Assembly: GCA_965205505.1 (NCBI GenBank)
Contig: CBDBHB010000009.1
Span: forward strand, 1,952,001 to 2,016,000
Length of the DNA stretch: 64,000 nt
Reading direction: 5' to 3'
DNA from: Acidobacteriota bacterium
Lineage (GTDB): Bacteria > Acidobacteriota > UBA890 > WLXD01
A model generated the notes under the pieces. The model did not search any database. It saw only the letters and a list, made by a program, of their open reading frames with translations, and had not been told where the DNA came from. Within the stretch, counting starts at the first letter, position 1, and each line of letters starts with the position of its first letter. Made by a program: the position numbers and the translations under genes. Below, one piece after another: positions 752 through 56,860 of the stretch.

Positions 752-2064
752 GCCACATTTTCCGGCGGGCGGCCGCGGACATGCCGGCGGCGTGCGCCGC
801 CGAGGGTGTATGGATCACTGACGAGCACGGCAACCGCTATCTCGACGACGCCGGCGGCGCCGTGGTGGTGAATGTCGGCCACGGCGTGCCCGAGATCCGG
901 CGCGCCATGCTGGAGCAGGTCGAACGCGTGTCGTACGTACACGGCACCGAGTTCACCACTGCCGCTCTCGAGGAGCTGGGGGACAAGCTCGCCCCCCTGC
1001 TACCCATGGAGGCGCCGTCAATCTACCCGGTTTCGGGCGGGTCAGAGGCTGTCGAGACCGCGTTCAAGATGGCGAGGGCCTTCCACCTGGCAAACGGAGA
1101 GGATGGTCGGCACAAGATCATCAGCCGCTGGGGCTCTTACCACGGCAACACCCGGGCGGCCCTCGCCGTCAGCGGTCGCGCGCCGCTGCGCGCCCCGTAC
1201 CTACCCTGTCTCGATAGCGCGATCCACGTGCCGGCGGTATATGAGTATCGCTGCCCGATGCCGACGCATCCGCGCGCCTGCGGCGCGGCGCACGCAGCGG
1301 AGCTCGACCGGGCCATTACGGAAGAGGGCGCCGATACGGTAGCGGGCTTCATCGCCGAGCCGATCGGCGGTGCGACGCTCGGTGCCGTCGTGCCACCGGA
1401 CGACTACTGGCCGGCGATCGCCCAGGTCTGCCAGCGCCACGGCGTCCTGCTCATCGCCGACGAGGTGATGACCGGTTTCGGTAGAACGGGAGCTTGGTTC
1501 GGTGTCGACCACTGGGATGTGCAGCCCGATCTCATCGCCAGCGGCAAGGGCTGCTCGTCGGGCTACTGGCCCCTCGGGCTGACGATCGCCAGCGGGCGCG
1601 TGGCGGCCGCACTGGACGAGGGCGGGTTCGTGCACGGCTTCACCTACTCGCACCATGCCGTCGGCGCGGCCGTCGGGGTAGCGGTGATCGATCGTCTGGT
1701 GGCAGGCGGCCTTGTAGCGCAGTCGCGCGACAAAGGGGAACGTCTCAAGGCCCTGCTCGTGGAGCAATTGTCGAGCAGCCCGTACGTGGGCGAGGTGCGC
1801 GGCCGCGGCCTGCTCGTGGCAGTGGAGCTAGTCGCGGATCGCCACACGCGCGAGCCCTTCCCGCGATCGTCCCGGGTCACCGAGCGCGTGCTCGCGGCGT
1901 GCAAGGCAGAGGGCTTGCTGGTCTATCCGGGAACCGGCATGGTCAACGGCACCGACGGCGACGCGATCCTGTTCGGCCCGCCGTTCGTCATCTCCGACAG
2001 CGAGTTGGATCAGGTAGTCGAGATCACCGCGCAGGTGCTGGGAGCCCTCGAGACGTTGCCATAG
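748..2064 (+). CDS. Class III PLP-dependent aminotransferase
   Basis: SGGSEAVE, SYHGNT, LLIADEVMTGFGRTG, SGKG (PLP lysine), HGFTY; ATGA overlap with the upstream gene. Confidence 0.92.
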   Translation: MSHIFRRAAADMPAACAAEGVWITDEHGNRYLDDAGGAVVVNVGHGVPEIRRAMLEQVERVSYVHGTEFTTAALEELGDKLAPLLPMEAPSIYPVSGGSEAVETAFKMARAFHLANGEDGRHKIISRWGSYHGNTRAALAVSGRAPLRAPYLPCLDSAIHVPAVYEYRCPMPTHPRACGAAHAAELDRAITEEGADTVAGFIAEPIGGATLGAVVPPDDYWPAIAQVCQRHGVLLIADEVMTGFGRTGAWFGVDHWDVQPDLIASGKGCSSGYWPLGLTIASGRVAAALDEGGFVHGFTYSHHAVGAAVGVAVIDRLVAGGLVAQSRDKGERLKALLVEQLSSSPYVGEVRGRGLLVAVELVADRHTREPFPRSSRVTERVLAACKAEGLLVYPGTGMVNGTDGDAILFGPPFVISDSELDQVVEITAQVLGALETLP

Positions 2065-2107: not shown

Positions 2108-5100
2108 TCACTCCTCCTCTTCGTCCTCTCCCTCGGGCTTCGGCGGGCGCGGGCGATCGAGCCAGAGCCGTACTCCACCGCTCCAGTGGCCAGTGCCATT
2201 GCGGTCGACGCTGTGCTCGCCCTCGTACAGGTAGTCGAGGATTGCCTTGTCCCACTGCAGGCCGGCGGTGGCCACGATCTTCATCCAGTCACCGTAGGCG
2301 GTCTCGTCGGGGGCCTCGGTGCCGCCGGTCCAGATCGTCACCTTCGGGTTGAAACCACCTCCGAAGGCGCCGCCTTCGCCGGATCGGCCGCCCTTGAGCG
2401 GCATCTGCACGTTGACCCCATCGGTCATGTCCTGTCGATAGATGATGGGCTCGTAGTCGCTTCCGTAGCGGTTGTATCGATCGTAGGCGCGCTCGTTCAT
2501 CGCCCGCACATCCTCGGCGGCGTTGATGTAGCGGGTGACGTAGTCACGGATGCTGAAGGCGGCGTCCTTGTGGCGCGGGAACTTGGGATCGTCCAGGTAG
2601 CCGAAGCCGGGAATGAACCAGCCTCGATTGACGCTCCAGTTGCGCTCGGTGATGCGGCCCCGACGTACCAGCCCGGCGTACTCCGAGAACAGCTGCACCA
2701 CTTCGTGCGACGGGTACCCGTGCGGGTTGAGAAAGATATCCGGGAGCCAGGTTCTCCATAGTGTCGGTCGGACCTTGGACTCCGGGTAGATGGGCATGTC
2801 CTCGCGACCCCCGTTCGTCGCATCCTGACCGAGCGCGCCGAGGTAGCCGGCGTGGAGGATGAAATCGGGAGTGATCTCGTACAGGTCGTAGGCTAGCTGG
2901 GCCCCATCCGGGTTGGTGAACGGATGAATGATCACGTTCACATCGAGGAGCTTTTTCTTGAACTCCTCGTCGGTCAGCAGCAGCTCGGCGAGCTTCAGCA
3001 CGTGGCTGGTCGACGAGACCTCGTTGGCATGCTGGCGGGCCGAGTAGACCACCGTCGGCTTGTGCGTCGTGAGCTTGTAGCGCGACCAGTGGCTGGCCTC
3101 GATGGGGGGCATCAAGAGCATCGCCCATATGTCCTTGCCGAGGTAGCTGCGGCCTGCGTGGTACATCGTCGCTTCGGGGAACGTCGACATGCGCGCCAGA
3201 ATCGCGTGCCCCTCGGGCGGCGGGATGGGTGTGTCCCACTGCACCATCTCCTCGCCCGCATAGCTGTAGCCGGCCCCCGGAAGCAATGCCGCGATGGTCG
3301 GATAGGCAGCCGGCGTGCCGTTGGCGTCGAGCGTGGCGACCTCCTGCGTGTCGCGATCGATCTCCCACTCCCACCCGGCGGCGAGACGAATCGTTCGTAG
3401 GCCATGGAACGCGAGCTCGGTGTCGTAGAGGCTGTGAGCGCGCAGCTCCTCGAGGTTGTCGATCATCGACGTTGCCTGGACAGCGCTCATGACGCGGCGG
3501 TCGACCTGGAACTCGTCGGCCTGTTGCAACAGGTCGGCGCGTTGGTCGTCCTCGAAGTCCACCTTGACCCGCATGTCGAGGCTGTCGAGGCCCACCTGCC
3601 CGGCGCGCACGGTCGCGGCGAGGGCGCTAGGTCGTTCCACCGTAACCACAGGGATATCGCGACGTAGCTGTCCGTTGGTGCCGTCGGCGTCGGTATAGTC
3701 GATTATTACGGCAGGTCGGCTGGTGGCGAATCCAGTCAGGCGGATCTTCGCCCAACCGGCCTCGCCACTACTGTTGGGCCGCATGATCGGGATAACCCGT
3801 CCGATGTGGCTGAGCTCCTCACCCCGCGCCATGCGCCCCAGGATGCGGAAGAAGAAGAGGGTGGGGAAGTAGATCTCCTCGTGGAGAGAGTCGAGCGACG
3901 AGATATACTCCTTGTCGATCCCGAGCAGATAGTCGGGCTCGCTCAGGCTTACCTCGACGGTGAGCTCACCGAAGTACGGCGCGTCGGCGCTCCGCGGGTT
4001 GCCGTCGTGTACCTCCGTGACATGGTCGTAGAGTCCGCTCAGCGTTTTCGACTGATAGTGGTCCCAGAAACTCTCGATGTCGGTGACGATGCGCTCATCG
4101 ATCAAGGTACTGTCGCCGCTGTACGCGGCGATCCAGCCGGTGGAGACGCGAACTAGCTCGTAGTCGTCGAAACGCTCGTAGTACGGCTGCAGGACATATC
4201 TCGGCTCGAACGTCCTTCGTAATAACTCGGCACCGCTCGTTGAGGTCACGACGACCTCGTAGGTGGGAGCGTCGATGGGTGCCATCTGGAAGTCGATGAG
4301 CTCCGGGTCCAACGACAGGTCGGCCGACATGACCTCGTCGACCGGCCAGATCTCCTTGAGCCAACGGACCTTGCTGTACATTGCCTGCTGCGGCCAGTCC
4401 TCCGGCGGACCGGTCTCGGCGAAGTTCACGCGGATGCCGCCGATTGCCTGATCGGCGCCGCCCGACTGCAGCCGCTGGAGCTCCGGTACGATCACCTCAC
4501 GTAGCCACGAGAAGCCCTGTTTGACGGCCGACAGCACGGTCACTTCCGTGGCGTTCGCGTCGGCTCCTGCTTCGATCAGCAGATCGCGGGCTTGCTGGGC
4601 AATCCGTTGGCGCACCTCGTGCGGCTCGCTGAGCCGCGCTTCCATACGCACCGGCTGACCGCGGCGCACGCCCGGGACAACCTGCGAACGGAATCGGGTC
4701 CAGAAAGCTTCGACCTCTGAGGGAATTTCGATCTGCTCCTCGCTGAGCACGGTGGCCTTCTGGACGTCGCGATCGTCCAGGTGCACCGAGAGGTTGGCGA
4801 TGTTCAGAGGTGCGAGCCGCTGGCGTACGATCGCTTCCAGCCCCGGCTCGATCTTCTCGAGCGAGACCGTGACATCGGCGGAGTCGATCTGCTCGCCCTG
4901 CAGCTCCTCGACCATGCGGTCGATCTTGTAGAGTGCGGTGGCTGCCTGGCCTCCCGGGCTGCGTTGCGACAGGAATCGCCACACCGCCAGCTCAACTGCG
5001 TCGACCGTCGACCGATCCTGGCCGCGCTCCGACAGGTTGGGGAAGCGCTCCGAAAGCTGCTCCAGCGCCCGCGCCACACCCGCGGCGTCACCGCCGGTAA

Positions 5101-6401
5101 CGACGACCGCACGCTTGTCGCCGAAAGCGCTGGGCACCACCTCGATGAGTCCCTCACCGGCTGCGAGCGCCTCGATGCGTCCCGGCGCCAGCTTGTCACC
5201 GTCCACGAGGTCGGCGATCAGCGGATGATCGAGACCGATGATCACCAGCGTCGGCTCGCTCCCGGCCTTATCGATCTGATCCGGGGTGCGACCGAGAGGC
5301 AAGGTGACTCCTGCCGACTCCAGACCGAGGCGCGCGGCCAGGTCGATCGTTCCATCCACACCCGGACCGGAGGCGCTCAGCACCGCATCGATGCGGTCGG
5401 GAATCACGTTGTTGTCGCTGTCTCCGAGCAAGCCCTCGGCGTCGAACAGCGTCGACAGGTCGAGGTCATCCTTGCCCCCCGACCCCGGACGCGCTGGGGT
5501 GGGACGCGACGGAGCCTCCGGCTCAACGCGTGGGATCTCCACAGCGACCGCGGCTCTGTCTAGCGCCGTCAACGCAACGTGCAGGCGCTCAGCACCGGCG
5601 TACGACAGCAGCTCGGACGGGTCGTTGTCGTCGCCCTCATCGTCATCTTCCACGGCGCTGGCGAGGCGTCGCGACGGCACCTCCGTCAGGGCGGTTCGCG
5701 CCCCTTCGACGTCGGACGCGGACAGACGCACGACCACGTCTACCGAGGAGAAGACGCCGTCGTTGCCGTCCTCGGCGTGGATTGTCGACACGTTGACCGC
5801 CTGCACCACGATCCCTTCGTCACCCAGGTATGCCGCGATATCCGCCGTCAGGTCGGCGAGCGTGGTGCCCTTGGCCGTGCCCACGTGCGGCAGGCGACCG
5901 GCAAAGGCTGCTGCAGCGGCGCGGGTGCCGGCGTCGTCGGCTCCGGCGATCACCAGCCAGTCCCGCCCTTGGGAGCGGATCCGCGTGACCAGCCCGGCGC
6001 CCGGATCCAGCTCGTCGAGGGTCGGGACGCTGAGCCCGAGGCGTTGGGTGCCGCCGCGCCCGACGACGATGCCGACGCTGCCCTCCGGCGCGTCTCGGGG
6101 TACCGGAATGTCCATGGCCATGGTCTCGAATCCGAGCCGAGCTGCGATATCGACGGCCGCCGCCAGGTCGGAATCCGAGCGTTCCAGGCCTAGAACGATG
6201 CCGGTGTCGACGAAGTCGACGACCTCATCGCCGTTTCGATCCTGGAAGATCAACCCGGTATCGAACAGGCTCTCGAGGCCCGCCGCGGCTGCCGCCTGCT
6301 TGGCCGCCAGCCGGTGTCGGGACGCCAACGGCGCCAAGGATCGCGACGAATGCGACGACGAGAGGTCTCCAGAGGCCATTCATGATGCGGGGTCGGATCA
6401 T
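2108..6401 (-). CDS. Very large secreted M14-family zinc carboxypeptidase (~1430 aa), frameshifted near 6300
   Basis: C-terminal M14 motifs RQHANE (HxxE), NPDG, NPHGY, EAPDE. ATG at 6401 with AGGAG RBS encodes a signal peptide (MIRPRIMNGLWRPLVVAFVAILGAVGVPTPAG) in a different frame from the 2108..6379 ORF. Confidence 0.75.
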
Positions 6402-49836: not shown

Positions 49837-50223
49837 TCAGTCGGATCCGCTCGCGCGGAGCACTTGGATTCGGGCCGGCAGCTCGGAGAAGACCAGCGGA
49901 TTGGAGCTGTCGGCGTTTGCCATGATGACGAACCCGTACCCCTCCTCCAGGTGCGCCACGAGGTTGCTCCGAAACCCCCAATTGCCTCCGGCATGTCCGA
50001 AGTACTGTGGCGCTTCGCCGGCCGGGGCCGGCACGTGTGGAGAGAGCGATCCGACCGTGAACCCCAACGCATAGTGGCCGATGCCGCCCTGGGTCACCAT
50101 CTTCCGGGTCATCTCTCGGGTGAGGACCTCGTTGGAGCGCCCCTGGAGCGATAGCTGAACTTCAATGAGGAATTTGGCGAGATCGGTCGGTGTCGTCCAC
50201 AGCCCGGCGGCGTAGAGCTCAGG
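49837..50223 (-). pseudogene. C-terminal remnant of a serine hydrolase (beta-lactamase family)
   Basis: AAGLWTTPTDLAKF, YALG, FGHAGGNWGF, FVIMAN; 5' part replaced by IS3. Confidence 0.8.
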
Positions 50224-51700
50224 TGACCCAAACCCCGAAAACGGTGCCAGGTTGATGTTTAGGAAATCGGTGTACCGTCGTAGCGGCTGGCAGAGGCAGC
50301 TGACGCCCATACCGATCGGAGAACGGACAGATGAAGCGGAAGAGGTACACGGACGAGCAGATCGCCTACGCGCTGCGGCAGGCTGAGGCGGGCACGCCGA
50401 TCAAGGAGGTGTGTGTCGCAAGCTGGGCGTCAGCGAGCAGACGTTGCCTCGACGTGGCGCCGCAAGTTCGCCGGGATGGGCGTGGCCGAACTTCGGGAGC
50501 TACGACAACTCCGCCATGAGAACCGGAAGTTGAAGCAGCTGGTGGCAGATCTGAGCTTGGCCAACACCATCTTTGAACACGATGCTCACGTTACGGATCA
50601 TGCTTCCGTCAAAAAAGGTGGTCGCCATCGATCACCACCAGGTCTGCAACCGCGACGGGTTCCGTGTCAGTGAGCGTCGAGCGTGTCGGCTGATCGAGTT
50701 GTCGCGCACCAGCCATCGGTATCAGAGCACAAGGACGGACGACCCCGTGCTGCGGCGTCGTCTTGGCGAGCTCGCCGCGGCGCGTCCGCGGTTCGGGTAT
50801 CGGAGGTTGTGCGTGTTGCTACGCCGCGAGGGATGGGTAGTCGAATACCGAAGCGTCGACGTCAGCGACACCCCGTGGGCCACGATGTGGCGGATGGCTG
50901 TAGGTCATCGCTGGCAATGTCCAGGTTGGCAAGCATCGTGCTCATCTCGGGCGGACTTGTTGACCTCTTTGCCGGGTACGAAGTCGCTCATCGTGATGAA
51001 AGCGAGGGTCGCGAGCTCGACCGCCTCAGCGTGGGTCACATACGGCTTGTGCTGCCGCCCGCAGAGCGGCCCAACGAGCGCTGGAGCATGGACTTCGTGA
51101 CCGATCGGCTCGAGAGTGGCCGGCCGTTTCGGGTGCTGACGGTGGTCGATCAGTTTAGCCGTGAATGTCCGTTACTTGAGCCGGCGTGTCGATGACCGGC
51201 AAGGCGGTGGCTGGAGCACTCGAGCGGCTGTCGTTTGCCGGGCCGTTGCCACGGGTCATCACCGTCGACAATGGCTCAGAATTCTACTCCCAGGCGATGG
51301 ACTCCTGGGCGTACCGAAGAGGCGTGCAGTTGGAGTTCATTCGGCCGGGAAAGCATCCGTGGAGAATGCGTTCATCGAGAGTTTCAACGGACGGCTTCGC
51401 GACGAATGCCTCAACGCCAACCTGTTCTTCTCGATCGATGACGCGCGCCGAAAACTGGAGGCTTGGACAGGCTTGACAATACCTTCAGACCACACAGCTC
51501 ACTAGAACGATCGTACCCGGAAACGGAGTCTCGCCAGGGGCTCGGAGGCGTTGCTCGAGCTCGAATCTCCAACTCGACGTGCGCGGCTCCAGGCCACTGT
51601 TTTTGGTGGGTTGGCTACGGTCACCAATCGACGATCGACCTCCCATCCCCAGGAGGTTCGATCCAAACCTCTGACTGGTACTGATTTCGGGGTGGGGTCA
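50224..51700 (+). mobile_element. Degenerate IS3-family insertion sequence
   Basis: Ends TGACCCAAACCCCGAAAACGGTGCCAG and CTGGTACTGATTTCGGGGTGGGGTCA; orfA MKRKRYTDEQIAYALRQ; A6G slippery site at 50611; orfB motifs RFGYRR, WSMDFV, DNGSEF, ENAFIESFNGRLRDECLN split by several frameshifts. Confidence 0.9.
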
Positions 51701-51726
51701 CAGCACCGAGTTACTGAGATAAGACG

Positions 51727-51751
51727 TGGTACTAACCGTGGGGTCAGGTCA
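51727..51751 (+). mobile_element. Second IS3-type right inverted repeat
   Basis: TGGTACTAACCGTGGGGTCAGGTCA aligns ungapped with TGGTACTGATTTCGGGGTGGGGTCA at 51676-51700. Confidence 0.65.
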
Positions 51752-52759
51752 GTAGGTACCGTCGTCGCGCAAGATGCGGTTGTCGATCTCGGGCGGGGTG
51801 GTGGCGTCGGCGGCGAAGGTTGCTGCTGGCTGTGCGAACTCCGCACCACCGGGTTCTACAATCAGGCTCGCTGGCACGTCTCCGCGGGCGGCGATCTCGG
51901 TGCGGGCTGTCGGCACCCAATCGTAGAACGGGTAGGGTTTGTCGAGCCGTGGGCCGTACTGCTGGATGCGGCGGCGCCAGATGTAGTTGTTCGGATCGAC
52001 CGCTAGCGCAGCCTCCCAGTAGTGCACGGCGCGCTGGAAGTCACCGGGGTGCGGCGCGGTCGAGTCGTACCGCCGACGAAATGCCACGCCGGTGCGGAAC
52101 AGCCCGTAGCCATGCTCCGGATTGGCGCTGGCGGCAGTCTTGAACGCGTCGACGATGGCGTCGATCTGGGTGTTGTCACCCCAGCGGTACAGATCGTGGG
52201 CCCGCTGACGATGCAGGTCGAGTGGTGCCGTCGACGTCGACGCCGTGTTGTCTGGTGGCTTGAACTGCACATCCACGAACGTACGCCGTAGCTCTTCCGG
52301 ACGATCCAGCGGCGGATGGATCTGCCGGATGATGCCATGCTCGTCGATCGCGAAGGTCAGGGGAACGACCTGGATCTCGAGCAGGTCGAGAGAGTCGACC
52401 AGCACCGGCCAATCCATTTCCTTCCATTGCATGAACAGGCGCGCTCGGTCCGGATGCTGTTCCTGAACGATGCCGAGCATCTGCACGTCGCCGGCCGCCT
52501 GCCATGCCTTCGTCGCTTCGTGCCACCCGGGCACGTGCACGCGGCAGCCTGCTCACCATGAGGCGAACACATGCAAGATCAGCTTGTGGCCACGAAAGTC
52601 GGCAACACTGCGGCGATTGCCGTCCAGGTCGGGCAGCGCGATGTTCGGGAAGGGGTGACCGATCTGCAAGCCGCCCTCGTCTTGCTGCGCATAACCGCTG
52701 GCCGGCAACAGTGCTAAGAGCATCACCAGAATCTCGAGCGTCACGGTGCGCACCGTCAT
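51749..52759 (-). CDS. Exported selenoprotein: AhpC/TSA-TlpA-like redoxin with UxxC motif plus TPR-like region (336 aa, Sec69), probably 3'-truncated
   Basis: ORFs 52553..52759 and 51749..52540 are in one frame, separated only by TGA at 52553-52555: HVFASW-U-AGC-RVHVPGW; signal peptide; downstream hairpin. Confidence 0.85.
52519..52535 (-). promoter_or_regulatory. Candidate bacterial SECIS hairpin
   Basis: CGUGCC-CGGGU-GGCACG; stem starts after 17 nt and loop after 23 nt downstream of the UGA; G at loop position 2. Confidence 0.7.
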
Positions 52760-52912
52760 CGAATTGTTCGCTCCAGCGTTGCGCCGCCTGGCAGGGCCTG
52801 CGACTGGCGGCCGATCACCTGGTCACGCAGTCTACCGTGGTTGCGCTTGAATACACTAACGGGGTGGCCTGGCTAAGCGCCTGTCGACTTACTCTCCCTG
52901 CGGAAGCGCTCG

Positions 52913-54268
52913 ATGACGAGAAGCGGATGGTTCGGTTGGCCTCGGAGACTCGGCGGCATCCTTGCCGCCTTGCTGGTCGCGGCAGCGGCGGCTGAATCGC
53001 CGACCGATGCTGGGCAGGGCGTCGATGTCGCCTCGGAGATCTGGCAGGGCGACTTGGTCCACCGCCTGGCCGTCGCGGATCGCCTGGCCGAGTCGGGTTC
53101 TTTTGACGAGATCTTCGCCGCGCTCGAGGCCGGCCCACGCTACCGGAGCCAGGTTGCCCTGGGCCGAGTGCAGGGGAGTCACCGCGTTGGCGGCCTCGAG
53201 CACCCCTACTTGGTGCTGGTGCCGGATGGTTACGACCCCGAGTCGCGCTACCCGGCACGTGTCTATCTGCACGGCGGTGTTGCGCGACGCGAGCTGCCGA
53301 CCAACGGTGACTGGTGGCGTGACCCAGACCGCCTGGCGAGCGACTACCACATTGCCGTGTTTCCCGCCGCTTGGGACGAGTCCAAGTGGTGGCAAGAAAG
53401 CCAGCGTGCCGCCCTTGCGGGAGTGCTGGAGCGTTTGAAGCTGATCTACAACGTCGACGAGAACCGCGTGCACGTGCTGGGAGTGTCGGACGGCGCCACC
53501 GGTGCCTGGTATCTGGCCTTTCGCGACCCGACACCGTGGGCCGGCTTTGTGCCAATGATCGGCCACCCGGCGGTACTAGCCAGCCCACGGGTAGATGTGG
53601 ACGGCCAGATGCACGTAGTGAACCTCCGCGGCCGTTCATTTCTGGTGTTCAACGGCGAGACGGACGCACTCTACCCGGCGCGCAGCGTCCGTCCTTACAT
53701 CGAGCTGTTTCGCGATGCGGAGGTGGCGGTGGAGTTCATCGAGATCGCTGGCGAAGGGCACACGGTGAGGTGGTGGCCCGAACATGCCGAGCGTATCGAC
53801 GCTTTCGTGGCGTCGACGCCGCGCGATCCGTTGCCGAGCCGCGTCAGCTGGGAAACCGACGACGTCGGCAGCTTCAATCGCCTGCATTGGCTGGTAATCG
53901 ATGAGCTGGGCCCCGCCGCAGGCGACGCCGAATTGCCCGACATCGAGCGCCACTTGCCGGGTGCGACCGGTCTCCTGGTCGGCTTTCCGCGGCATGCGCC
54001 GAGCGGTCGCGTCGAAGTGACAGCTGAGGGCAACGAAATCGAGATCCGCTCGCGCGGCGTGCGTCGTCTGCGCCTGCTGCTGTCACCACGCCAGTTCAAC
54101 TTGTCGCGGCCGCTGCGTGTTTTGGTCAATGGGGTGGAGCGACACCTCGGCGTCGTGACTCCAGACCGCGGCACGCTGTTGCGCTGGGCGGCCCGTGATC
54201 TAGACCGTTCGATGCTCTTCGCCGCGGAGCTGGAGATCCGGATTCCCGCTGCCAGCGGTCCGTGGTGA
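52913..54268 (+). CDS. Secreted alpha/beta hydrolase (PHB-depolymerase/esterase-like)
   Basis: Signal peptide, VPDGYDP, YLHGG, VDENRV..GVSDG nucleophile elbow, NGETD, GEGH. Confidence 0.8.
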   Translation: MTRSGWFGWPRRLGGILAALLVAAAAAESPTDAGQGVDVASEIWQGDLVHRLAVADRLAESGSFDEIFAALEAGPRYRSQVALGRVQGSHRVGGLEHPYLVLVPDGYDPESRYPARVYLHGGVARRELPTNGDWWRDPDRLASDYHIAVFPAAWDESKWWQESQRAALAGVLERLKLIYNVDENRVHVLGVSDGATGAWYLAFRDPTPWAGFVPMIGHPAVLASPRVDVDGQMHVVNLRGRSFLVFNGETDALYPARSVRPYIELFRDAEVAVEFIEIAGEGHTVRWWPEHAERIDAFVASTPRDPLPSRVSWETDDVGSFNRLHWLVIDELGPAAGDAELPDIERHLPGATGLLVGFPRHAPSGRVEVTAEGNEIEIRSRGVRRLRLLLSPRQFNLSRPLRVLVNGVERHLGVVTPDRGTLLRWAARDLDRSMLFAAELEIRIPAASGPW

Positions 54269-54438: not shown

Positions 54439-55518
54439 ATGCCGCTGGTCGCCCATTCTCAGCTGCCGAGTTTTGATCGGTTGCGAGCGCGAGGACAGGA
54501 GGTTCTCAGCCTCGAGCGGGCGCTGTCCCAAGACATACGGGAGCTTCATGTTGGTCTGTTGAACATGATGCCCGATGCCGCTCTGAGGATCACCGAGCAG
54601 CAGTACATGCGGCTCATCGGTAGCTGCAATAAGATTGCGCAGTTCTACGTCTATCCCTTCTCGGTTTCTGGTTTGCCGCGTAGCGCCGAGGCCGAGGCCT
54701 ACATAGATAGTCACTACGCCAGCTTCGACAAGCTACGCGACGCGGGCCTCGATGCCCTCATTATCTCGGGGGCCAACGTCACCAATCCTTCGATTCAACT
54801 GGAGCCGTTCTGGGAACCGTTGAAGGACGTCATAGCTTGGGCCGCGGAGAACGTGACCAGCGTGCTGTGTTCATGCTTGTCTACCCATGCACTGGTCAAA
54901 CATCTGTACCAGATCGACCGCCATCGGTTGCCGTGCAAACGTTGGGGGGTGTACAGCCATCAAGTGCTGGATAGACATCATCCGCTCATGCAAGACATCA
55001 ACACCCGCTTTGATGTGCCCCACTCTCGCTGGAACGAGGTGCGGCGCGACGAGCTGGAAGCGGCGGGTCTGAAGACCCTGGTGCAAAGCGAGGTAGCAGG
55101 GGTGCACATGGCAGCCAGCCCGGACCAATTTCGCATTGTCTACATGCAGGGGCATCCCGAGTACGATTCCAACAGTCTGCTCAAGGAATACAAGCGTGAG
55201 GTACTGCGATTCCTCAACGACGAGATCGACGGTCCGCCTCCATATCCGGAGAACTACTTCAACGCCGCCGCCATCGATATTGCCGAGGCCTATCTGCACG
55301 CCGCGAGGCAAGCCAAGAGCACCGGGAACGCCGTTCCCGAGTTTCCGGAGGCGGAGCTTGCGCCCCATTTAGACAACACCTGGAACGACACCGGCAAAGC
55401 CATTTTCAACAACTGGCTCGGACTTGTATACCAGTACACCGACCACGACCGTCATCGGCCGTTCGCCTCGGGGGTAGACCCGGAGGACCCGCTCGGCCTT
55501 GGGCACCGGTCCCGTTGA
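54439..55518 (+). CDS. metA: Homoserine O-acyltransferase (MetA)
   Basis: IRELHVGLLNMMPD, LDALIISGAN, CSC (catalytic Cys), PHSRWN, QGHPEY. Confidence 0.92.
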   Translation: MPLVAHSQLPSFDRLRARGQEVLSLERALSQDIRELHVGLLNMMPDAALRITEQQYMRLIGSCNKIAQFYVYPFSVSGLPRSAEAEAYIDSHYASFDKLRDAGLDALIISGANVTNPSIQLEPFWEPLKDVIAWAAENVTSVLCSCLSTHALVKHLYQIDRHRLPCKRWGVYSHQVLDRHHPLMQDINTRFDVPHSRWNEVRRDELEAAGLKTLVQSEVAGVHMAASPDQFRIVYMQGHPEYDSNSLLKEYKREVLRFLNDEIDGPPPYPENYFNAAAIDIAEAYLHAARQAKSTGNAVPEFPEAELAPHLDNTWNDTGKAIFNNWLGLVYQYTDHDRHRPFASGVDPEDPLGLGHRSR

Positions 55519-55588
55519 CTCGCCAATCCAGGCACGATTTCGCTATCGGCGACGATACGGACACCCGATAAGGGAGAGGAAGATTCAT

Positions 55589-56860
55589 ATGAAGGACGAA
55601 ACGCTGGCCATACACGCCGGTTATACAACCGACCCGACAACCAAAGCAGTGGCGGTGCCGATCTATCAAACCGTGGCCTACGAGTTCGACAATGCGCAGC
55701 ACGGGGCCGATCTCTTCAATCTCGCCGTCCCGGGCAACATCTACACCCGCATCATGAATCCCACGGCAGACGTGCTCGAACAACGCGTTGCGGCACTGGA
55801 GGGCGGCGTCGCGGGTTTGGCCTTGAGCTCCGGTCAGGCTGCTGTCAACTATTCGATTCTCAACATTGCCGAAGTCGGTAACAACGTGGTCTCCGTGCCT
55901 CTGCTCTACGGCGGTAGCTACACGCTATTTGCCCATATGTTGCCCAAGCAAGGCATCGAGGTGCGCTTTGCGGAAGACGATAACTCCGCCAATCTGGAAA
56001 AGCTGATCGACGACAAGACGGTTGCGGTTTTTGCGGAGACCATCGGTAATCCCGCTGGCAATATTGCCGACATCGAAGCGATCTCGATGATGGCGCATGA
56101 ACACGGTATCCCCGTCATCGTCGACAACACGGTGGCTCCGCCGCCGCTGCTCAAGCCGATCGACTACGGCGTCGACATTGTGGTGCACTCGCTGACCAAA
56201 TACATGGGCGGACACGGCAACTCGCTTGGCGGCATGATCGTGGATAGTGGGAACTTTCCGTGGGCCGACAATGCCGACAAGTTCCCGGGCCTCACCCAGC
56301 CTGAGCCCTCCTACCACGGTGTGGTCTACACCGATGCGCTAGGCCCGGCTGCGTATATCGGACGGGCGCGAACCGTGCCGCTGCGCAATACTGGCTCGGC
56401 CATCAGCCCGCTCAACGCGTTCCTGATCTTGCAGGGCATCGAGACGCTGCCGCTACGTATGGAGCGGCATGTTGACAATGCGCTGGCGGTAGCGAAGTTT
56501 CTGCAAGGACACGCCAAGGTGGATTGGGTGCACTATGCGGGATTGCCGGACTCGAAGTATTACGACCTGGCAAAGAAGTACACCAACGGCCGTCCATCCG
56601 CCCTGTTGAGCTTCGGGGCCAAGGGGGGATTCGACGCCGGGGTGAAATTCTACGACGCGCTCGAGTTGTTCAAACGGCTGGTGAACATCGGCGATGCCAA
56701 ATCACTCGCCGCCCACCCGGCGTCTACCACCCACCGGCAGCTGAGCGAAACCGAGCTGACGGCCGCGGGCGTGACCCCGGACATGATCCGGCTGTGCGTG
56801 GGGATCGAGCATATCGACGATATTCTCAGCGACCTGGATCAAGCCCTGTCTGTGTCATAG
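55589..56860 (+). CDS. metY: O-acetylhomoserine sulfhydrylase (aminocarboxypropyltransferase)
   Basis: PIYQT, NIYTRIMNPT, SSGQAA, HSLTKY, LVNIGDAKSL, HPASTTHRQL. Confidence 0.93.
   Translation: MKDETLAIHAGYTTDPTTKAVAVPIYQTVAYEFDNAQHGADLFNLAVPGNIYTRIMNPTADVLEQRVAALEGGVAGLALSSGQAAVNYSILNIAEVGNNVVSVPLLYGGSYTLFAHMLPKQGIEVRFAEDDNSANLEKLIDDKTVAVFAETIGNPAGNIADIEAISMMAHEHGIPVIVDNTVAPPPLLKPIDYGVDIVVHSLTKYMGGHGNSLGGMIVDSGNFPWADNADKFPGLTQPEPSYHGVVYTDALGPAAYIGRARTVPLRNTGSAISPLNAFLILQGIETLPLRMERHVDNALAVAKFLQGHAKVDWVHYAGLPDSKYYDLAKKYTNGRPSALLSFGAKGGFDAGVKFYDALELFKRLVNIGDAKSLAAHPASTTHRQLSETELTAAGVTPDMIRLCVGIEHIDDILSDLDQALSVS

Follow-up and report, generated by a model that had tools for sequence, protein, structure and literature searches.

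Redoxins of the thioredoxin fold that contain selenocysteine (Sec) are the commonest kind of bacterial selenoprotein, and the class itself is therefore not new. The closest curated model is NCBIfam NF041054, "ResA-like WAxxUGC motif-containing protein" (WAxxUGC_long), and a 2026 table of 119 selenoprotein families lists several families of the UxxC redoxin type as well as a UGC-containing TlpA family (PMC13188914). Here we describe a gene on the minus strand of a 64,000-nucleotide (nt) stretch of an Acidobacteriota bacterium genome (contig CBDBHB010000009.1, positions 1,952,001 to 2,016,000; the whole stretch is called the window below). The gene most probably belongs to a family of exported, Sec-dependent UxxC thiol-disulfide oxidoreductases that carry additional tetratricopeptide repeat (TPR) and Cys-pair domains, and the copy in the window has been cut by an insertion sequence (IS). 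We put the probability of this reading as a whole at about 0.85.

Comparison with described families

The UxxC redoxin entries of the 2026 table share their Pfam domains and the UxxC motif with the family described here, and all are predicted redox selenoproteins. Only the redoxin domain serves to define these entries. As far as the names of the entries consulted show, the present family is not among them, since none of these names includes a TPR or a further domain; an overlap with the more broadly named entries is possible (PMC13188914). For Prx-like 1 and Prx-like 3, thousands of Cys homologs are given in the text of the Global Ocean Sampling study (PMC2398784), whereas none was found for the present architecture among the best-scoring relatives listed. 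The same text describes a UxxC Prx-like selenoprotein that, like the present family, is fused to an unknown Cys-bearing domain, Unknown_3. That domain has three conserved Cys residues, including a CxxC, whereas the part added in the present family has two, spaced C-x6-C, so that the two do not correspond (PMC2398784).

NF041054, the best NCBIfam match of the window protein, also represents a Sec-containing TlpA/ResA-like redoxin. The window protein scored 61.1 bits and three relatives about 21 to 30 bits (20.9 to 30.2), while the relative P0002 gave no match; with a cut-off of 300 bits, the family falls outside the model. The motif of NF041054 is U-G-C, as opposed to U-A-G-C in the window family. 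Its profile, which has 354 positions and an N-terminal extension, aligns weakly into the TPR region of relatives (residues 2 to 193 of P0017 to profile positions 121 to 317) and covers neither the Trp/Arg-rich segment nor the Cys-pair domain described below.

The fold, the export, a W-C-x-x-C-type motif, and a Pro residue a few positions past the motif are shared with TlpA, ResA, StoA, CcmG/DsbE, and the pneumococcal thioredoxin-family lipoproteins (PDB entries 1jfu, 1st9, 3erw, 2b1k, 2yp6, and 4hqz). The family differs from these Cys-based proteins in the predicted Sec in place of the first Cys, in being about three times longer, and in its TPR, Trp/Arg-rich, and Cys-pair parts. A full-text literature search for selenocysteine together with TPR and redoxin found no paper on this architecture, a term search of the available text of PMC13326102 gave no match, and NCBIfam release 20 holds no model for the family.

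A TGA codon conserved at the active site

An earlier note on this DNA, made from its letters alone, had proposed that two open reading frames (ORFs) share one frame and are split by a single TGA exactly where the first Cys of a thioredoxin-fold motif belongs, and this is what we found. The ORFs at 52553 to 52759 (68 amino acids [aa]) and 51749 to 52540 (263 aa) are in the same frame on the minus strand, with the TGA at 52553 to 52555 between them. From the ATG at 52759 the frame passes this TGA and ends at the TGA at 51749 to 51751, and the read-through product has 336 residues, with the sequence ...ILHVFASW-U-AGCRVHVPGWH... around residue 69 (U69). The TGA thus occupies the position of the first Cys of the W-C-x-x-C motif of the redoxin domain and converts it to W-U-A-G-C. 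The features of the locus are the following.

51749 to 52759, minus strand: predicted selenoprotein gene, window allele; 336 codons, with TGA codon 69 as putative Sec, followed by the stop; a truncated allele
52688 to 52759, minus strand: putative signal peptide, M1 to A24 (...LLALLPASGYA/QQ), read from the sequence
52313 to 52663, minus strand: thioredoxin-fold redoxin domain, residues 33 to 149, TlpA/ResA/StoA-like, from Pfam, NCBIfam, and PDB profile matches
52544 to 52555, minus strand: active-site motif U-A-G-C (UxxC), with the putative Sec codon TGA at 52553 to 52555
52519 to 52535, minus strand: hairpin of the Sec insertion sequence (SECIS) type, with a 6-bp stem and the 5-nt loop CGGGU, overlapping codons H75-V-P-G-W-H80
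51989 to 52207, minus strand: TPR region of about two repeats, residues ~185 to 257, from a comparison of the family profile with consensus TPR structures
51917 to 51994, minus strand: nearly invariant Trp/Arg-rich segment PNNYIWRRRIQQYGPRLDKPYPFYDW, residues 256 to 281, from invariant alignment columns
50223 to 51752, plus strand: IS3-type insertion sequence, mosaic and degenerate, with its right end abutting codon 336
51541 to 51668, minus strand: stranded fragment of the lost C-terminal domain (EPPEGWEVDRRLVTVANPPKTV...), 88% identical to positions 4134 to 4265 of L024, an intact ortholog

A scan of one genome per species across 185,579 species found 388 loci, 80 of which were kept for codon analysis. 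In all 80, which come from several phyla, the codon aligned to U69 was TGA, the motif ASW-stop-AGCR-x-HVPGWH was kept around it, and the protein was conserved on both sides. Such agreement in codon position over all 80 loci is more than chance would give. By record title, about 47 of these loci belong to Acidobacteriota and its classes, 13 to Gemmatimonadota, 7 to Verrucomicrobiota, 3 to Planctomycetota, and 1 each to Poribacteria and Neomarinimicrobiota, and 8 are titled "uncultured bacterium"; class and order names in the titles were assigned to the phyla to which we take them to belong. The gene was also found in 29 of 401 genomes drawn evenly from the phylum of the window. All 27 matches covering residue 69 in this sample contained an in-frame TGA, although its position was not compared row by row and one row is the unpublished genome G049, and no stop-free match covering residue 69 was found among the 401 genomes.

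At least half of the stretch is contained in 17 sequencing runs from several studies. In contigs from 4 runs, no letters other than TGA were seen at 52553 to 52555, and the TGC or TGT that the earlier note had named as a sign against its proposal did not appear. The metagenome contigs of two DNA runs break at 52520 to 52559, where the summed depth is 46 and 250 compared with about 9 to 11 alongside; this pile-up fits contigs of other organisms in which the stretch of TGA and hairpin is almost identical in sequence. In one study, two RNA-library runs gave contigs that extend across the TGA (52478 to 52657, with one difference, and 52421 to 52571, with none); these are a hint that the window gene is transcribed, one that DNA carry-over could also produce.

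As had been foreseen, gene callers split the gene. Among 5.8 billion protein clusters searched, 2605 relatives were found at E values up to 0.001, and each of the best 120 covers no more than 80% of the query because the entries begin just past the TGA. When the protein search was scored on residues 25 to 125, it gave 425 proteins, the best 120 of which cover only the half that follows the TGA. Similarly, a HMMER search with the C-terminal half against 1.84 billion cluster representatives gave 640 proteins at E values up to 0.001 (313 at E values up to 1e-30), and in 149 of the best 150 of these 640 the module starts at residue 217 or earlier, as in the truncated form. The database names of the relatives are "hypothetical protein" or "TPR repeat protein," and no full-length form was found among the relatives listed. 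P0247 (488 aa), the one exception among these 150, was considered as such a form and rejected: its N-terminal part is an alternative frame of the redoxin region, which makes it a frameshifted entry.

All of the public gene calls listed are split at the TGA, as would be expected if it were a true stop between two genes, one for a 68-aa exported peptide and the other for a cytoplasmic TPR protein starting after it, and TGA does serve as an ordinary stop in the family, for example at the end of the intact gene in many loci. We nevertheless consider this very unlikely. The thioredoxin fold would be cut at its active site. Conservation of frame and residues extends past the stop in all 80 loci, which represent several phyla. 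The start of the presumed second gene is not conserved, since database entries begin MHVPGW, VHVPGW, or MPGWHE, its product would lack a signal peptide, and the synonymous sites directly downstream of the TGA are frozen. As judged from the comparison of the loci, UGA codon 69 behaves as a sense codon under purifying selection, and its predicted decoding as Sec in the window rests on the same comparative data.

Selenocysteine machinery

The genome of the window encodes the Sec machinery for which the earlier note had proposed a search, namely, selB (354.6 bits), selA (516.6 bits, found twice), selD (322.8 bits), and tRNA-Sec (68.2 bits, anticodon TCA, identified with ARAGORN). The two selA genes have identical scores and lie on one contig (G000:C6:10376-11734 and G000:C6:191379-192737), representing either a recent duplication or an assembly repeat. 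Two fdhA-type genes with one in-frame TGA each were also identified, at G000:C9:1517186-1520185 (...ARL-U-HGPTV...) and G000:C9:1541902-1542651 (...AAT-U-HAPTV...), and each TGA is followed by a GC-rich hairpin with G and U in its loop that resembles the hairpin of the redoxin gene. In addition, selB was found in 5 of 5 other carriers of the gene that were tested.

These genes bear on the proposal that the UGA is read by a near-cognate tRNA (for Trp or Cys) or under a variant code, with no Sec involved. Nothing specific speaks for it, as the frame is simply open only if TGA is a sense codon, whereas TGA serves as the stop of many genes, both in the family and in the genome, tRNA-Sec, selA, selB, selD, and the TGA-containing fdhA genes are all present, and the conserved SECIS-type hairpin lies at the distance required. 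Such decoding is therefore extremely improbable.

The SECIS-type hairpin

The stem of the hairpin is formed by 52535 to 52530 paired with 52524 to 52519, and the loop CGGGU occupies 52529 to 52525. The hairpin and its loop were as described in the earlier note, whereas the distance of 23 nt given there applies to the loop: the stem starts 17 nt and the loop 23 nt past the TGA. The consensus bacterial SECIS model has a loop of 3 to 9 nt with a G among its first two nucleotides, a stem of 4 to 16 bp, a spacing of 16 to 37 nt, and a minimum free energy (MFE) no higher than -7.5 kcal/mol (PMC13188914, Fig. 2 legend). With a loop of 5 nt, a stem of 6 bp, a spacing of 23 nt, and a local MFE of -9.6 kcal/mol, a value equalled by 9 of 200 shuffled sequences, the hairpin agrees with all the criteria of this model.

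RNAalifold returned a single helix for an alignment of 81 sequences, pairing columns 21 to 26 with columns 32 to 37 as counted from the T of the TGA. Across the alignment, 98.1% of the helix cells are paired, the five core pairs show six changes on one side only, each of which yields a G-U wobble, and no pair is broken. Homologs that combine the TGA with a conserved hairpin, whose absence would have counted against the original proposal, thus exist. A longer lower stem, seen in the MFE fold of 71 nt, was dropped because RNAalifold keeps the 6-bp helix only. An Rfam search of 52300 to 52800 at E values up to 10 gave two chance-level rows, neither of which was a SECIS family.

The DNA stretch CACGTGCCCGGGTGGCAC 3' of the TGA is almost invariant across the 81 sequences. 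Codon entropies were computed over 79 loci: V76 is GTG in 100% (0.0 bits), P77 is CCC in 95% (0.29 bits), H80 is CAC in 99% (0.10 bits), and H75 is CAC in 90% (0.47 bits). Elsewhere in the gene, conserved Val and Pro codons have entropies of 1.2 to 1.9 bits.

Domain organization and possible activity

A hydrophobic N-terminal segment was identified with a Kyte-Doolittle heuristic in 55 of 57 relatives, in line with the predicted signal peptide, and a lipobox-like motif was seen in 10 of the 57. Residues 33 to 149 of the window protein match the Pfam families AhpC-TSA (PF00578; 50.5 bits, cut-off 26) and Redoxin (PF08534; 40 bits, cut-off 26.6). The closest curated NCBIfam models apart from NF041054 are ResA, StoA, TlpA, and DsbE, all far under their cut-offs, and the profile matches of the domain in the PDB are 2yp6, 4hqz, 3erw, 1jfu, and ResA. 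The TPR region of the window protein stays under the Pfam cut-off (TPR_16, 22.3 bits versus 32.7), whereas relatives pass (P0094 with TPR_11, 35.9 versus 26.8; P0037 with TPR_14, 30.5 versus 23.5), and positions 190 to 273 of the family profile match consensus TPR structures in a PDB profile comparison.

Intact relatives have about 460 to 490 aa. Their redoxin domain is followed by about two TPR repeats, then by the nearly invariant segment PN-x-YIWRRRIQQYGPRLDKPYPFYDW, and then by a Cys-pair region that ends AHWNNE ... GYALYYVCEDVNGxCLYRRQD and has two conserved Cys residues. No known relative of the Trp/Arg-rich segment was found. The last region is an additional domain of ~120 aa, of putative beta structure, that contains the C-x6-C pair and is weakly DsbD_N-like. 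It is present in 9 of 9 aligned relatives and in a 57-row alignment, in which C436 and C443 are both nearly invariant. A comparison by hhalign of the C-terminal half with an alignment of DsbD_N domains from relatives covered 95 columns and brought the first Cys into register, with a probability of 70% (E value, 4e-5). Pfam gave only weak NPCBM_assoc matches on the C-terminal half (23 of 70 members; best E value, 0.00029), a hint of a beta-sandwich, and the profile of this half, Trp/Arg-rich segment included, gave no match against PDB sequences at E values up to 10.

DsbD has a periplasmic immunoglobulin (Ig)-like domain, nDsbD, and a thioredoxin-like domain, cDsbD. A single exported polypeptide thus carries a thioredoxin-fold centre together with a beta-sandwich whose Cys pair is close to the C-terminal end of that domain, and intact members of the present family may be built likewise. 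The family differs from DsbD in having no membrane domain, another domain order, no Pfam DsbD_N match, and the C-x6-C spacing.

From these data we propose that SelB and Sec-tRNA(Sec) bind the hairpin and insert Sec at position 69. After export, the U69/C72 selenylsulfide centre would carry out extracytoplasmic thiol-disulfide exchange, for which a reductase role of the TlpA, ResA, CcmG, or Etrx kind is the most likely. A partner or substrate may be bound by the pair of TPR repeats and by the invariant segment rich in Trp and Arg. In intact members, the C-terminal Ig-like and possibly DsbD_N-like domain, with its C-x6-C pair, could be a second redox centre that passes electrons on, by analogy with the two periplasmic domains of DsbD.

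The best Pfam match of the window protein, AhpC-TSA, together with a weak match to the NCBIfam thiol peroxidase model (24.4 bits), would also suit a Sec-dependent, peroxiredoxin-like peroxidase acting on extracytoplasmic peroxides in place of a thiol-disulfide reductase, and Sec is common among peroxide-reducing enzymes (PMC13188914). This is unlikely, as the motif is the W-U-x-x-C of TlpA, ResA, and DsbE and not the PxxxTxxC/U given for peroxiredoxins (PMC13188914), and the nearest curated or solved relatives are ResA, StoA, TlpA, CcmG, and the pneumococcal thioredoxin-family proteins.

The thiol-disulfide oxidoreductase reading can be taken further, tentatively and as a possibility that we hold to be somewhat doubtful. 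The family would then be obligately selenium dependent, with no Cys form, and would consist of four exported modules forming a soluble two-centre relay, in which a Se-S TlpA-like centre and a C-x6-C nDsbD-like centre are bridged by the TPR and a Trp/Arg clamp. DsbD's periplasmic half would have a free-standing counterpart in this family, which would be common in Acidobacteriota, Gemmatimonadota, Verrucomicrobiota, and Planctomycetota and unseen in all current annotation. Its SECIS element would be locked to the invariant peptide HVPGWH, so that RNA and protein constrain each other.

Truncation by an insertion sequence

The earlier note had taken positions 51749 to 52759 as the entire gene. The frame was correct, but the natural protein is longer by the ~120-aa C-terminal domain, and the gene end at 51749 is not the natural end of the family protein. 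Homology to the intact ortholog L024 (92% DNA identity) reaches as far as the final base of codon 336, at 51752; the stop codon that follows, TGA at 51749 to 51751, is part of the end of the IS3-type element. A 128-nt piece of the lost domain (51541 to 51668) is enclosed in IS-derived DNA, the downstream flank of the gene resumes at 50223, and codons 337 to 378 and 423 to 458, as numbered in the intact form, occur nowhere in the genome, in which no other copy of the gene was found. BLAST searches showed that the transposase part of the IS is 96% identical to sequences at some two dozen sites in the genome and that the 52-nt end occurs at many more. The copy in the window is a mosaic, with its transposase split over several frames. 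The gene is intact in the same-genus genomes G069, G118, and G275, and a contig from another study is 99.6% identical to the window over 790 nt and runs 126 nt past 51752 with non-IS sequence. IS-like sequence that is 86 to 88% identical to the window IS is also found downstream of the intact L024 gene (about 5134 to 5805), suggesting that the IS may have sat beside the gene before the truncation.

With the family being real, the window allele itself could be a dead pseudogene, in which the IS took the second redox centre and left a remnant that yields no useful protein. We take this seriously and put it a little below an even chance. The genome-wide loss of the two codon blocks, with the 128-nt fragment left in IS DNA, the loss of the conserved Cys pair, and the intact gene in three genomes of the same genus all point to such a fate. 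Against this, the 336 codons that remain show neither a frameshift nor a further stop, their identity to an intact relative in the databases is 98%, the damage spares the start, the signal peptide, the TGA, and the hairpin, and the cell could still produce a shortened redoxin-TPR protein. The clean codons and untouched elements make the IS event look recent. On balance, we lean slightly towards the normal function of the window allele being impaired or lost; its product, if made, would keep the redoxin, TPR, and Trp/Arg-rich parts and lack the Cys-pair domain.

Points that weigh against the proposed reading

Several results count against the reading of the family as exported Sec-dependent oxidoreductases with TPR and Cys-pair domains. 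In addition to the carriers, 5 of 5 non-carriers of the phylum have selB; its presence in carriers is a necessary condition rather than a correlation and does not discriminate between the two groups. The stability of the hairpin is only modestly above that of shuffled sequences (z score, -1.84). Covariation in the helix is near zero: its score is reached by 68 of 500 shuffles, and 1 pair has changed on both sides, with 276 of 500 shuffles doing as well. The near absence of covariation is due to the fact that the helix hardly varies, and the RNA argument thus rests on the frozen synonymous sites and not on compensatory change; these sites, in turn, overlap an invariant peptide.

With regard to the C-terminal domain, PF11412 (DsbD_N) matched 0 of 70 members at E values up to 1, and a genome search with it did not report the gene in the three same-genus genomes that keep it intact. 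The Cys spacing is C-x6-C, compared with C-x3-C or C-x4-C in the DsbD_N domains of the relatives. No conserved partner gene was identified either: when the 1182 flanking ORFs of the 80 loci were clustered, no family was present in more than 4 loci.

Finally, the alternation of Cys and TGA at codon 69 that the earlier note had expected was not borne out, every form found having TGA, and no Cys ortholog of the same architecture was seen in the best 120 of the 425 proteins or the best 150 of the 640 representatives. Correspondence of Sec and Cys is therefore seen at the superfamily level only, where the CxxC of ResA, TlpA, and StoA aligns to the U position. The core of what the earlier note had proposed, an exported Sec-containing UxxC redoxin fused to a TPR-like region, still finds support in the TGA kept in 80 of 80 loci, the frozen sites of the hairpin, the Sec machinery, the Pfam redoxin matches, and the TPR profile match.

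Surroundings of the gene in the window and at related loci

The neighbours of the window gene encode a homoserine O-succinyltransferase (HTS), a Cys/Met pyridoxal phosphate (PLP) enzyme, an amidohydrolase, a DUF5916 protein, and an SDR protein, and they are not common to the family. The HTS gene (275.9 bits) and the gene for the PLP enzyme of Cys/Met metabolism (429.9 bits) lie upstream at 54439 to 56860, in divergent orientation; these are ordinary methionine-pathway genes and are not kept beside the family elsewhere. Between them and the selenoprotein gene, a 451-aa ORF (52913 to 54268), also divergent, has a signal-like N terminus and gave no Pfam match at E values up to 1e-4.

At the related locus L040, a separate redoxin of the Cys type (...WATWCVPC...; positions 855 to 1223, minus strand) is encoded ~1.7 kb upstream of the selenoprotein gene. 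In 3 of the 80 loci (for example, L057, positions 33 to 995), the adjacent upstream ORF on the opposite strand resembles, as judged by eye, the selenophosphate-synthetase/AIR-synthase type. The sister genome that has L024 also contains L028, a second copy with 61% identity in which the TGA is present; its last ~60 residues are in another frame, suggesting a frameshift or a pseudogene.

Significance

On the sequences compared, the family appears to be Sec-only, large, and spread over several soil and sediment phyla. It stands out by its size: the scan of 185,579 species, with one genome for each, yields 388 loci, and there are 640 cluster representatives at E values up to 0.001. Once recognized, it would allow hundreds of annotations to be mended, and the selenoproteomes of little-studied phyla would gain a member. 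For the question of why Sec persists at a position that Cys never takes over, the family offers an unusually clean natural case, and it is suited to dissecting a SECIS element that overlaps an invariant peptide. The IS-truncated allele and the intact alleles in the same genus provide a natural comparison.

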